DNA from: Octopus vulgaris
Lineage: Eukaryota
Reading direction: 5' to 3'
Assembly: GCA_951406725.2 (NCBI GenBank)
Contig: OX597827.1
Location: forward strand, 25,978,001-26,042,000
Length of the DNA stretch: 64,000 nucleotides
The position numbers and the translations under genes are program-made. Shown piece by piece: positions 1,163-6,800 of this stretch (the stretch's first letter is position 1; the number at the start of each line of letters is the position of its first letter). The notes beneath the pieces are model-generated. The model did no database searches. It had not been told where the DNA came from and saw nothing but the letters and a program-made list of their open reading frames with translations.

Positions 1163-1202
1163 TAGGCGCAGGAGTGGCTGTGTGGTAAATAGTTTGCTAA
1201 CC
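1163..1202 (+). mobile_element. SINE family A, 5' part of the tRNA head, interrupted by a 2.3-kb insertion
   Basis: AGGCGCAGGAGTGGCTGTGTGGTAAATAGTTTGCTAACC matches the heads of uninterrupted copies (19396, 51839, and 26468 on the minus strand). The SINE resumes at 3498. Confidence 0.9.
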
Positions 1203-1430
1203 TACTTCCCATGGGTCTTTGTTGTCAGTGTACGCATGCGTCATTGTGTTGTGCACTGAAGAAGATAGCCGCAGTGTTTAGCCTGCCAAAAAGAAGCTGC
1301 TGCAAGGTAGGACTTTTGTCTCTTGGGTCCAGTGGGGGTTGTTGTCTGTGGTTATAATTTTTACAAAAAATGAGTCCTCACTGGATTCAAAATGTTGGTC
1401 TGCTTGCGGTGCAGCAATACTGTTCAAATC

Positions 1431-1707
1431 AAGTGAAAAGTTTTTGTCTCATTGTGAGAAGTACAGTTTTGGTGCGTATCCTTCAACCAAAAGTTGTTCA
1501 CTTTTAATAGTGTATGTTTTTACAACAACGTTTACCATTAATTGGAAAGCTGTATTTCAAGTGTTCACATTAAGTGAAAAGTGTTTCTCATTGTGAGAAG
1601 TATAGTTTGGTGGCGTATCCTGCCACCAAAAGTCGTTCGCTGTTTTTTAAATAGTGTGTATTTGTGCAACTATGTTTACCAATAATTGGAAAGCTGTATT
1701 TCAAGTG
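1431..1707 (+). repeat. Two tandem ~135-bp monomers in the 5' UTR of copy 1
   Basis: 1431-1563 and 1572-1707 both run AAGTGAAAAG...CTCATTGTGAGAAGTA...GCGTATCC...ACCAAAAGT...AATTGGAAAGCTGTATTTCAAGTG. Confidence 0.9.
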
Positions 1708-1937
1708 GAGCATTCAAGGTTTTAAACGAAGTTCCATAGCGCTTGGAGTACCTGAATACCCAGAAGATATTTTACTGTATTTTTTTGAACTGTTGTTTTC
1801 TTCTTCTTTTGTGACTTTCTTATTGAATTGTTTGTTCTTTTTTTCTTTTTCCCTTTTCTTTCCTTTTGATTGCACTCTTTTCTTTTTGAAATTTGTGAAA
1901 TATTGTTTTGGACTTTTTTTACTTTTTGATTTAAAAC

Positions 1938-3195
1938 ATGGCAAAAAAATACGGATAAGATTGTAGAGTGGCAGATTGTCTTTAAGAGTGGCTCACACAG
2001 CAAGAGGAGAGGACGATGGTGTTGAGAACGTATTCGAAGTTGCTCGATATCAATGCCGTCTTCTCCAAGAATATAGTTGAGCAGGATTTGGCGGGACATC
2101 TGCCAACCATTAAGGATATCTCTAGGGGTGTCAAATGTGCAACGGTGTGGTTGCTGTTTGACACCCCAGGAAAGGCTCGCAGTTTTGCGAGCCAGCCCGG
2201 TGAGGGTGAAGAAATTTTGTTTCTTCCCACTTATTGTGGGAAAAAATTGACGAAGGCTTGGGTCTGCGGTTTACCACCCGGAATTGAATCCCAGTGGATA
2301 GAAGATGATATCCGTCGGGGTCTGGGTGGCAACGGAGCCAGGCTCCTTAATATGAAAATTCTTCCTGCGGCTGATTGGGTTGGGTCAAAACAGCTTTTGA
2401 CCCTGTGCACCCAATCAGCCATGAATCTGGTTATGCTAGATTTTTTGAAAATGGCCGGGTGCAGGTACTCGGATACTCTTGAGGGTCGCCCCCTCTAGGT
2501 GTCATCGGTGCCTGGAGCCTGGCCATATAAAGAAAAACTGTCCTTAGGAACAAAGCAAAGTCCTGGAGTAGTTGATTGAAACCTCTGTAGAAGAAGGAAC
2601 GAAGGCGGCCGAGGAGACGGAGGACTCCTCAAACAAGGGCCGCAAGTGGAAGAAGGTGAGCCACAATGGGTGCTCACTGAAGGACCCTAGGGATGAGGGA
2701 GGGGAGGCGAATCTCCCTAACACTGAGGAGACACACTCTCCCTGAGTTGAGAAAAAAGAGGAAGAGGAAAAGAAACAGTACATTGCCGGCAGTCGGTGAC
2801 ATAGCACCGGTATGTCCCGGAACCTTGCCGGTAGGGTTGTGCCAACGGCAGAGGAAGAGATAATGTTGGGGGGAATTGTGCCGCCAACGGTAGAATTGAC
2901 TACCTCGAACCCGGAAGGAGGGGAACCATTGGTCTTCTTCTACAGAGGCGGAGAGGTAGAAAAGGTGCTGGAAAAGCACTATAAGGGAGTACCTTTAGCC
3001 TGCACACAGGATCCCGAATGGCCTCTGCAGACAGCTGTGGTGGTCATATCGGTGTCTGTGGGGTATAGGCTGCAGGGATTCAATGAGGAATATCGCATAT
3101 GGCCGGGCGACGCCGGCTCAGATCCCGCCTTGGTCTTGAATGAGGAGTGGGGAATGGTGGAGTATACGCGCACAAGCGATGTTGGGGAGGGATAG
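1938..3195 (+). pseudogene. Decayed ORF1/Gag-like nucleic-acid-binding protein with CCHC zinc knuckle
   Basis: ATG at 1938 aligns with the copy-2 start. ORF 2016-2498 is followed, after a frameshift, by CHRCLEPGHIKKNC (CX2CX4HX4C), a K/E-rich linker, and C-terminal ORF 2812-3195. Confidence 0.75.
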
Positions 3196-3640: not shown

Positions 3641-4449
3641 TATATATATATATATATATATATATATATATATAACATATTAATAAATAAAACATATGCA
3701 TATATATATATACATATATGTACGTACCAACCTCTACATGCGAAAAGCAAATCAAATAAAATTTGAGATCTTTTCGCAGAGGGGTAAAAATGGTAAGAAA
3801 AACAGGACAGTAACGACAGTACAAAATATATGTTTTATTTATTAATATATTATATGACGGAACGCACGCATCCATTTCTAAGTAACATTGTTCTTGATAT
3901 ATCTATATCTATATCTATATCTATATCTATATATATATATATATATATATATATATATATATATATATATATATATATATATATATATATGTGTGTGTGT
4001 GTGTGTGTGTGTGTGTGTGTGTGTGTGTGTGTGTCTGTGTGCAGGGATGTGAATGCGAATGTGAAACCTACGGGAATGTTTCTGGCAGTATAAAATGGGA
4101 AGCTAAATATTACGTAAGATGTTATCACGATACCATGATTACATTTATTTAGAACCTTTTAAATACTCTCTCAAACAGTATTTTATAAAGGCAATCGTGA
4201 AATGTGTGACCTCGCCAAATAATGAGCTAGCAAACTTCTCTAGACACACAGTCATATATACGCACGAACAAATATATGTATATATATGTATATATATATA
4301 TGTACACATATATATATATATGCATATATAATATATACATATATATATATATATATCAATAAGATATATATGGATATATACATACCTACATATATATATA
4401 TATATATATATATATATATATATATATATATATATATACATGCATATAT

Positions 4450-4628
4450 GTGTACTGGTTTAAAAAACGTGAACAGAATAAATAACAAGAACATTAAGAA
4501 AGCTAAAACATGGAAAATGAACTTTTGCGGGACAATGAACGAAACAAATAGAGAAACGAGACAAGCAACATAAAGAACAATCCCTTCATCAGTTGTCCCC
4601 TGTTTTATCTTCTCTACGTTTCAAAGGA
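4450..4628 (-). mobile_element. Probable PLE terminal fragment with a degenerate hammerhead, between (TA)n tracts
   Basis: Minus strand reads CTGATGA-A-GGGA...TCCC-GCAAA, with a further GAAACGTA motif upstream. (TA)n lies on both sides. Confidence 0.4.
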
Positions 4629-5351
4629 AGGATATATATATATATATATATATATATATATATATATATATATATTTCGTTTTGGGATTTGGTTTGCAAG
4701 ATTCTTTATGTGAGTGTGTTGAAGCATATCTTGCTGTGTCTAGGGGGAGTCATTTTCTTTTAGTGCCTTATTTCTTAATACACTCACCGGTTTAGTTTCC
4801 AATCATATCCTTCTTCATTTTTCCTTTTCTTCCTTTTTTATTACTTTTATTATTTAGTTACTCATATATATAATGTTTAAAATTAAAGTTTTCATGGGAG
4901 ACTTTAAAATGTAGTATCAAAATTTTGTGCTGTGGGAGTGTATGTAGTGTGCTTTGAGAGCAGGTTCCCCACTGAAAGCTACGGGGTGTGGAGGGGTCAT
5001 CTACGTTACTGCAATTTAGCCGCAGGATTTACATCAGGAATTCCTCGGTGCACGTTCAGTATATTTTAAGTAATCGATAGGGAAGCCAGAATGCGCTGGA
5101 TGCTTTATATAATTCAACCATCCTTTTGGCTGACACCTTCACTGCTCCCTAGTGGCTGCAATTCCCTTATATCAGTCCTCAATCACCAGGGAGCAGCATA
5201 GATATAAGACTAAACGATCGTCACACGAAATAAAGCTTATTGTACAATCTGCTTTCCTTAATTGTTTAACATATATATACATACATATATATATACATAT
5301 ATATATATATATATATATGTATATATGTATATGTATATACATATACATGTA

Positions 5352-5378
5352 TGGCTGTGTAATAAGTAGCTTGCTTAC
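5352..5378 (+). mobile_element. SINE family A head fragment, broken at the same site as the copy at 1163
   Basis: TGGCTGTGTAATAAGTAGCTTGCTTAC overlaps the start of ACTTCCGG, the 5' end of element copy 2. Confidence 0.75.
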
Positions 5379-6800
5379 TTCCGGTTACCCGGAATGCAAC
5401 ACTAGTTGGTCTGGACTATTACAGTGAGAAGACGTGAGTTTTGACTCCGTGAAGAGAAAGAACAAAAAGAAAAATTGTCAATTATGGCTCGCTATAGCGA
5501 GCAAAAATTTTGTGTTCTCATCACCATAACGGTGAATTGAGAATTTTTGCGTGAAAATTCTTGGTGTGGCTCTTTTTCGCCAAATAATTTGTAAATTCTA
5601 GTGGGCGTATCTCGCTAGAAAAGTGGAATTTTTCTGAACTGGAGTACTTCAAGAATAACCCAGACTATTGGATTACCTGTTGGAGTATTATACAAAGGAT
5701 TCCCTATCTGTGCTATTTGTGAGGTTTTTCTTTTATTTTTTTCCCTTCTATTTTTTTCTTTCTTTCTAAACTTTGGTTTATTCTTTTCATTGTTTTAATT
5801 TCAGTTTCCTTTCCTTTTTTTTTATTTTGCTTTATTTTTATTCGGTATTAATTTTTTGGCGGACTGTTTTTTGAACTACTTTTGAACTGTTTTTTTGGGG
5901 GGGGGGCATGGCAGAGAAGGAACTTAAAAAGAAGAACTCTGTCTTGGGGTGGGAAATTAACCCGCCTAAGCAGTGGTTAAAAGATATGGAGGAGAGAACG
6001 ATGGTGGTTAGAACTTATTCTAAAGTTCTTGATTCCATCACCGTCTTCCCAAAACCAGTTATAGAAAATGAACTGAAAGACTATATGTCCTCTGTGAAAT
6101 ACATATCACGTGGTGTCAAACTTGCAACCGTATGGTTGCTGTTTGACAACCGGGAAAAGGCTCGCACATTTGCGAGTCAGCCTTTAGAGAGTAACTAAAT
6201 TCTGTTCCTCTGTCGTACTTAGGGAGAAAATTAATAAGAGCCTGGGTATGTGGGTTGCCCCCAGGCACCGAGGCGGGTTGGATTGAAGATACCATTCGAC
6301 GGGGAGTGGGGGATAGTGAACCCAGGCTCTTAAATGTAAGGGTATTGCCGGCGGTCGATTGGGAAGGGTCAAAAGCGATTTTGACCCTGTGAACCACATC
6401 GGCCGCAACAGATCTGTTTTTTCCAGAGTTTTTAAATGGCTGGCTGTAGGTATCCGGTGATACTTGAGGGACGTCCACCCAAGTGTCACTCGTGCCTGCA
6501 GCCAAACCACATTAAACAGAATTGCCCCCAGGACCATGAAAGATTCTGGAACAGTCACTCGATGACACCTCCCCTACCCGGTCAAATGGAGAGATGGATG
6601 TGGTTTAGGAGGCTGAAGCCTCCTCAACACAAAAAGGATTAAAAAGGCAGAAGGCGAGCAACAATAGTTGCGTACCGAACGGCCCTAAGTCTTCGAGAGG
6701 TGGGGGATAAACTCGGACAAAGTGGAAGAGCTTCACTCTCCCGAAGTCAGGAAGAAAAGAAAAAAAACAAAGAAGAACGGGTCGCGCAGGGGCGAGATGA
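5377..6800 (+). mobile_element. ORF1-type retroelement, copy 2 (divergent subfamily, 3' end not recognisable)
   Basis: Starts ACTTCCGG. The 5' UTR shares GGCGTATC and GGAGTAC...CCCAGA motifs and a T-rich tract with copy 1. The protein is homologous to copy 1, and similarity fades near 6780. Confidence 0.75.
5908..6780 (+). pseudogene. Decayed ORF1/Gag-like protein with CCHC zinc knuckle (copy 2)
   Basis: MAEKEL...RTYSK...ISRGVKLATVWLLFD...FASQP, then AWVCGLPPG in a shifted frame, then MAGCRYPVILEGRPPKCHSCLQPNHIKQNCP. Manual count gives 37/61 identities to copy 1 over MV.RTYSK-FASQP. Confidence 0.8.

Follow-up and report, generated by a model that had tools for sequence, protein, structure and literature searches.

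Long interspersed nuclear elements (LINEs) of the Tx1 clade include families that insert at one site in a multicopy sequence. In the part of the survey we cite from, Tx1L inserts into Tx1D, Keno into U2, Kibi and Koshi into microsatellites and Tx1-Mar into Mariner-N4_AMi; the targets listed there comprise U2, U5, 5S, satellites, microsatellites, piggyBac, Mariner, Harbinger and long terminal repeat (LTR) elements, and a family counts as target-specific when more than 20% of its flanks lie in one repeat (PMC4494074). Non-autonomous LINEs that carry only the first open reading frame (ORF1) are known as well: HAL1 (half-L1), HeT-A and Ag-Sponge, again as given in excerpts of the sources (PMC5753468, PMC5786205). 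A curated study of octopus repeats reports 13 recently active L1-Tx1 families, and the word “target” is absent from the portion of that study consulted (PMC13282606). Here we describe two ORF1-only elements, copy 1 (family A) and copy 2 (family B), in a 64-kb stretch of the 2.8 Gb Octopus vulgaris assembly (positions 25978001-26042000 of contig OX597827.1, called the window throughout). Both sit at a fixed site, GGT^AAGTAGC, in a short interspersed nuclear element (SINE), and were likely moved in trans by a 5.45-kb LINE of the L1/Tx1 group that uses the same site; we put the probability of this reading at roughly 85%.

The arrangement resembles that of the Tx1-clade LINEs, as far as the cited excerpt describes them, in that a two-ORF LINE with an apurinic/apyrimidinic-type endonuclease (APE) and a reverse transcriptase (RT) occupies a fixed site in a multicopy sequence (transposons being among such targets), with non-autonomous elements at the same target. 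It differs in that a SINE is hit here, in its promoter region, and SINEs are absent from the targets listed there; the passengers, moreover, are protein-coding ORF1-only elements rather than SINEU. The autonomous partner appears to work like the target-specific Tx1 elements, a likeness drawn from targeting and not from RT phylogeny. As in HAL1, HeT-A and Ag-Sponge (to the extent of the excerpts), ORF1 is the sole coding product and is under purifying selection, and the 3' tail is common to an autonomous LINE; unlike them, the octopus elements are of invertebrate L1/Tx1-group origin, form several coexisting families (55-69% amino acid identity), insert specifically into a SINE and carry an ORF1 from a clade far from that of the partner. 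Fixed-site insertion into a multicopy sequence of the small-RNA type, as a low-harm niche, is shared with the Dada DNA transposons and with Utopia/R2, but these use a transposase and a restriction-like endonuclease, respectively, and target real RNA genes, whereas here an APE enzyme meets a selfish tRNA-like repeat (PMC8869645, PMC4640811, both in part). No SINE-targeting LINE is described in the literature searched, which took in the available text of PMC8869645, PMC4640811, PMC4824008, PMC4758252 and PMC10294476 and had most subscription papers, Repbase and Dfam outside its scope. Target-specific Tx1 elements and ORF1-only LINEs are thus known as kinds; what appears to be new is the SINE as the target of a LINE with ORF1-only passengers.

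Targeting of the SINE site is genome-wide. A first-pass annotation, made from the letters of the window alone, had proposed a retroelement family that targets one SINE position, and the flanks bear this out. Searches with the 5' 300 nt of each window copy gave 342 (family A) and 167 (family B) first-look candidates, the best 40 of which were scored in each case and 30 loci taken for each. The target motif stood upstream of the 5' end at all 30 family A loci, our own copy included (judged by eye), with 26 following a SINE head, three another element's 3' end and one a run of 16-mer repeats; it did so at 29 of 30 family B loci, the lone exception being 5'-truncated. Nor do most copies have unrelated flanks downstream: the 3' ends of family A run into a matching SINE remainder in 25 of 30 cases (24 by script and one row shifted by a base), into a tandem copy in one, and are off-target in four, while for the 20 family B loci taken in full the SINE resumes at the cut in 15, at a later point in three and never in two. 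A pattern for the element end that ignored the flank altogether matched 632 times, followed in 408 by an exact AAGTAGC (reversed controls, 0); among the first 30 of these ends by position, 29 lay at the SINE site (26 by script, three in which the site has decayed or the tail is cut) and one was off-target, vs 0 of 27 located ends with a SINE tail among control LINEs with a zf-RVT domain (three of 30 ends were not located). These 30 best zf-RVT LINEs had been candidates for the partner; it was not among them, and they were kept as the control. Eight target-like sites per 128,000 strand-positions of the window put the chance of such a hit at about 6e-5 per random insertion. The 20% threshold of the Tx1 survey, as stated in the excerpt, is far exceeded by the flank-blind ends (29/30), the partner (27/30) and family A (25/30) alike (PMC4494074).

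The site also houses an autonomous element, as the first-pass annotation had suspected. The junction pattern had 260 exact matches; of the first 30, six had the C-terminus of an ORF2 upstream and most others were ORF1-only elements. The partner LINE is 5.45 kb long, encodes ORF1 and ORF2 (APE, RT and zf-RVT) and has the same 3' tail as the ORF1-only families. It is the youngest family at the site (1,523 first-look candidates, the best 40 about 100% identical over 501 nt), and all 30 copies examined lie there, 27 in the SINE remainder and three in tandem arrays. Both reading frames are open in two copies, L268 and L276. ORF2 of L268 matches RVT_1 (1e-27), Exo_endo_phos (5e-12) and zf-RVT (1e-8), all above the Pfam cut-offs, and its ORF1 matches zf-CCHC at the cut-off; the best solved relative of this ORF2 is human L1 ORF2p (7e-67; R2, 1e-19), and the catalytic motifs of the partner APE align with the human L1 endonuclease (EN). 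The fixed 3' end, 5' truncation, target-site duplication and lack of LTRs form a footprint of target-primed reverse transcription (TPRT). By domain content (APE, RT, C-terminal zinc motif, CCHC ORF1) we class the partner as a non-LTR retrotransposon of the L1/Tx1 group. Its placement in the Tx1 clade rather than with L1 proper is tentative: the 23 database relatives carry no clade names, and the tree built for it contains no named Tx1 reference. Near-identical copies and intact ORFs indicate recent activity. Older copies at the same site have an ORF2 75-90% identical to the partner's, and in that tree (FastTree, with X bridging the breaks in two older copies and L251 and L256 left out as too short) the same-site ORF2s form one clade, with support of 1.0, among the genome's other LINEs of the group.

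The passengers, families A and B among them, are ORF1-only (HAL1-like) elements of about 2.0-2.3 kb; 15 of the 20 family B loci reach the SINE from ORF1 within 1.1-2.1 kb. Among 140 passenger loci there was no match to the endonuclease, and matches to the RT region occurred in six. One of the six (L016, which is L307:58-2135, minus strand) is a chimera that joins the 5' half of family A to the 3' end of an autonomous LINE, a product to be expected where a single RT encounters both RNAs; it lies at the SINE site, and the 16-nt target unit is repeated three to four times in tandem ahead of it. The 3' tail common to passengers and partner consists of a hairpin with a 4-bp stem (TGCC/GGCA) and a loop that varies, followed by AAATA; pairing holds in 94% of cells, and two of the four pairs show double, covarying changes. 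The passenger ORF1s form one clade of their own, and dN/dS between intact ORF1-only families is 0.12-0.19. Intact 420-aa frames are found in young ORF1-only families, and mixed tandem arrays of different families occur inside one SINE with a 15-17 nt target unit between them (L188, L189, L190, L271, L274-L275).

Within the window, the parts of the two copies are as follows.

1164..1186, plus strand: SINE 5' head (target, upstream of the cut), with the A-box-like TGGCTGTGTGG at 1175-1185, named from the general RNA polymerase III (Pol III) consensus
1187..1202, plus strand: target-site duplication, 5' copy (AAATAGTTTGCTAACC); its final bases may be element leader
1203..3497, plus strand: copy 1, ORF1-only non-LTR element of family A, 2.3 kb, full length, decayed
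1421..1707, plus strand: internal tandem duplication in the family A 5' untranslated region (UTR), two units of ~145 nt, 82% identical, found in relatives too
1938..3195, plus strand: copy 1 ORF1, with N-terminal domain, CCHC knuckle and charged tail; frameshifts and stops
3471..3483, plus strand: 3' tail hairpin TGCC-TTTAT-GGCA, common to the autonomous LINE
3498..3513, plus strand: target-site duplication, 3' copy (AAGTAGTTTGCTTACC)
3514..3640 (end approximate), plus strand: SINE remainder, with the B-box-like GGTTCAGTTCC at 3529-3539, then (TA)n; 77-88% identical to other SINE copies in the window
5352..5376, plus strand: second SINE, with head remnant at 5352-5363 and target site AAGTAGCTTGCTT(AC) from 5364
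5377..6806 (end approximate), plus strand: copy 2, ORF1-only element of family B (~2.05 kb in relatives), 3' third missing
5908..6806, plus strand: copy 2 ORF1, broken and truncated

Copy 1 splits its SINE after GGT and begins with TACTTCC at 1203. Its flanking 16-mers agree at 14 of 16 positions, and both carry a C>T variant (AGTTTG) absent from the usual SINE. The first-pass annotation had given it a 16-bp duplication, with the SINE resuming at 3498: the resumption stands, but the duplication needs a reservation, in that the last 6-10 nt of such a 5' copy can, in full-length copies, stem from the element's own leader. Over aa 24-191, copy 1 ORF1 is 67% identical to the ORF1 of a young, intact member of the family. 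Between copies 1 and 2, the N-terminal part of ORF1 agrees at 44 of 73 residues (60%), DNA identity is 67% across 556 nt, and no alignment is obtained between the 5' UTRs; this is close to the earlier estimate of ~61% over 61 residues with differing UTRs. Neither copy has an ORF2, and no match to ORF2 was found anywhere in the window. We read the two as decayed members of old ORF1-only families, probable passengers and not the driver. Copy 2 breaks off at ~6806, which places its 3' duplication beyond reach. In the stretch past the break (6807-7200) a single 40-nt hit was the sole match among the fetched loci; 6830-7070 had been considered as the start of an ORF2 and was rejected, family B relatives being without one and the fetched loci matching it by that hit only. 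Elsewhere in the window, repeat-finder output was dominated by microsatellites, and an open frame of 207 aa at 36153-36776 (plus strand) resembles a fragment of a Penelope-like element.

That the two copies arose by one local duplication, or are neighbors by chance, might be suggested by their spacing of 1.9 kb and common orientation, but each belongs to a separate family whose relatives, 85-94% identical, are spread over many contigs, their 5' UTRs are unrelated and their ORF1s are 60% identical; the first-pass annotation had already argued against one local event, and we give that explanation practically no weight. With thousands of copies present, two lying this close together is probably coincidence, but that does not hold for the site they share. 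Another question is whether SINE head and tail are fixed parts of one composite mobile unit, since the head is present in nearly all full-length copies and is uniform over its final 18 nt in young ones, and a short target-like leader is donor-derived: the 5' side of full-length young copies always ends in CTAACC, even in 8 of 8 copies with a different 3' site, and a handful of target-like bases thus travel with the element RNA. However, 11 5'-truncated copies (of 15 rows; four were set aside, one with an intact SINE upstream and three full-length or internally deleted) adjoin the SINE head at the break, with exact duplications of 6-17 nt; they measure 50-1116 nt from the head to the 3' junction, and the shortest copies are ~35 nt. 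The SINE is therefore the target and not part of the element, and its head is no fixed piece of the element's 5' end, as the first-pass annotation had allowed it might be. Diversity in the flanking SINE tails is also ~30-fold that of the element: across 27 young LINE copies, divergence is 0.26% over the final 140 nt and 8.3% in the flanking SINEs, all 27 of them distinct (8.3% is the clean value; 11% in another alignment was inflated by one tandem row). Off-target copies have duplications of their own and no SINE, and tandem copies lack the head. Contigs from sequencing runs broke at repeats and showed no empty allele, which speaks for neither side. The composite unit is largely refuted, and we consider it very improbable.

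The main rival is that the elements are tethered to Pol III factors or to open chromatin at the SINE promoter, a loosely specific endonuclease then picking AAGTA-like bases nearby. Targeting of tRNA genes by tethering is known for other retroelements, A- and B-box-like motifs stand on either side of the site, off-target sites retain only A[AT][GA]TA, and the EN hairpin is not lengthened. On the other side, insertion is base-precise and in a single orientation, the idea is weakened by new insertions into the 16-mer alone, as left between tandem copies with no B box after it, sister families use precise sites in unrelated repeats, and two SINE subfamilies are used equally (0.91% and 0.72%). We regard tethering as distinctly unlikely, and prefer recognition of the SINE site by the partner's own machinery, with passengers moved in trans. 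Several observations weigh against this preference. A 4-bp hairpin is weak evidence, and short related sequences inflate the shuffle test; the loop of the partner EN hairpin is no longer than in a sister family without a clear target. Over its final 18 nt the head varies about as little among full-length young copies (1.9%) as does the element (2.25%), so that target and donor origin are not separated there. Off-target copies do occur, at AAGTA-like bases (L063, L082, L083, L084, L302). The passenger ORF1s are homologous to the partner's but only 27-29% identical, in a separate clade; the passengers are for this reason not simple deletions of today's partner, and an old split or a chimeric origin would account for them. 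An autonomous element with a passenger-type ORF1 may exist elsewhere in the genome, the best 150 of 11,500 first-look candidates having been scored with the ORF1 query.

The junctions (fixed 3' end, variable 5' end, duplications up to 17 nt, tandem stacking, common tail) fit established TPRT biology, on which the following scheme is modeled. The partner APE would recognize the SINE head and nick the bottom strand at a fixed position, where the RT would prime on an RNA ending in the hairpin-plus-AAATA tail. A second nick up to ~16-17 nt downstream would yield the duplication; annealing might proceed by way of the short target-like leader (…CTAACC) for full-length cDNA and by microhomology for truncated cDNA. 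As the duplication would recreate the site, further copies could stack in tandem. Passengers would be mobilized in trans by the partner, retaining a functional ORF1 that probably serves to package their RNA and to gain access to the partner's ORF2. Both kinds of element likely rely on an internal promoter of their own.

The host SINE is tRNA-like and abundant (57,456 exact 31-mer matches genome-wide). The boxes flanking the insertion point were read by eye; ARAGORN found no tRNA in the head (0), and Rfam gave no tRNA match. About ten more uninterrupted or partial copies lie in the window, besides those at 26279-26470 and 33564-33760 (both minus strand). Beyond its central microsatellite the full SINE has a second domain, which terminates in GTAAAAGA repeats; the LINE tail is different, so another LINE probably moves this SINE. 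Insertion places 2-5.5 kb between the A- and B-box-like motifs and would thereby silence the SINE copy concerned. Any such disabling concerns less than 1% of exact target sites: occupancy is ~0.8% (469 junctions vs 57,456 intact), and the effect on the SINE is accordingly small. By variant, 260 of ~28,900 and 209 of ~29,100 exact sites are occupied, and comparison of these two variants' exact sites found no subfamily preference of the TTACC/TAACC kind. An element subfamily ending in GTAATGAAATA (L285, L288, L290, L298, L305) lies in 5 of 5 cases in a SINE variant reading AAGAAG, which suggests that targeting may have persisted through SINE subfamily turnover.

Two further repeats harbor sister families, each at a fixed site and with duplications of 16-17 nt, and the SINE-targeting line is therefore one branch of a transposon-targeting radiation. 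The sister clade of the SINE-targeting ORF2 (L171-L173, L179, L180) uses one site in a repeat marked by GAAGCGACACCTACTG, with a 16-nt duplication and a tandem array on C2; this repeat looks Penelope-like, and Rfam returned no ribozyme or other match for it. In another LINE family (L182-L184), 3 of 3 copies lie at GAAATTCGGCAAAGAA, within a repeat ~480 nt long that has CTAGT at its end and looks Helitron-like. Three copies of the zf-RVT LINEs (L125, L127, L139) have a common downstream flank (ACTGAATACT…), a possible further preferred target. One could go further and see in the partner an active APE LINE that is a hyperparasite of the SINE, cutting between promoter boxes partly under guidance of the Pol III machinery, tracking SINE subfamily turnover and hosting ORF1-only parasites, within a young radiation of sisters (ORF2 identity ~60-65%), every one adapted to a transposon of its own. 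Such a picture is speculative and, taken whole, unlikely; if true, it would supply a natural series from which to read the code behind APE target choice, and the LINE would act as a brake on source copies of the SINE.

On the practical side, automatic repeat annotation is prone to fuse SINE flanks into LINE or passenger families. The partner, having intact and near-identical copies, is directly testable, and its close sisters with other targets or none open the determinants of APE specificity to comparison, a question of interest for directing gene insertion to a multicopy site that is presumably harmless. For the family itself, the ORF1-only lineages maintained in this genome address the role of ORF1 for an RNA without its own ORF2, and the SINE promoter as a target adds a three-level nest: the SINE, the LINE that inserts into it and the ORF1-only passengers of that LINE.

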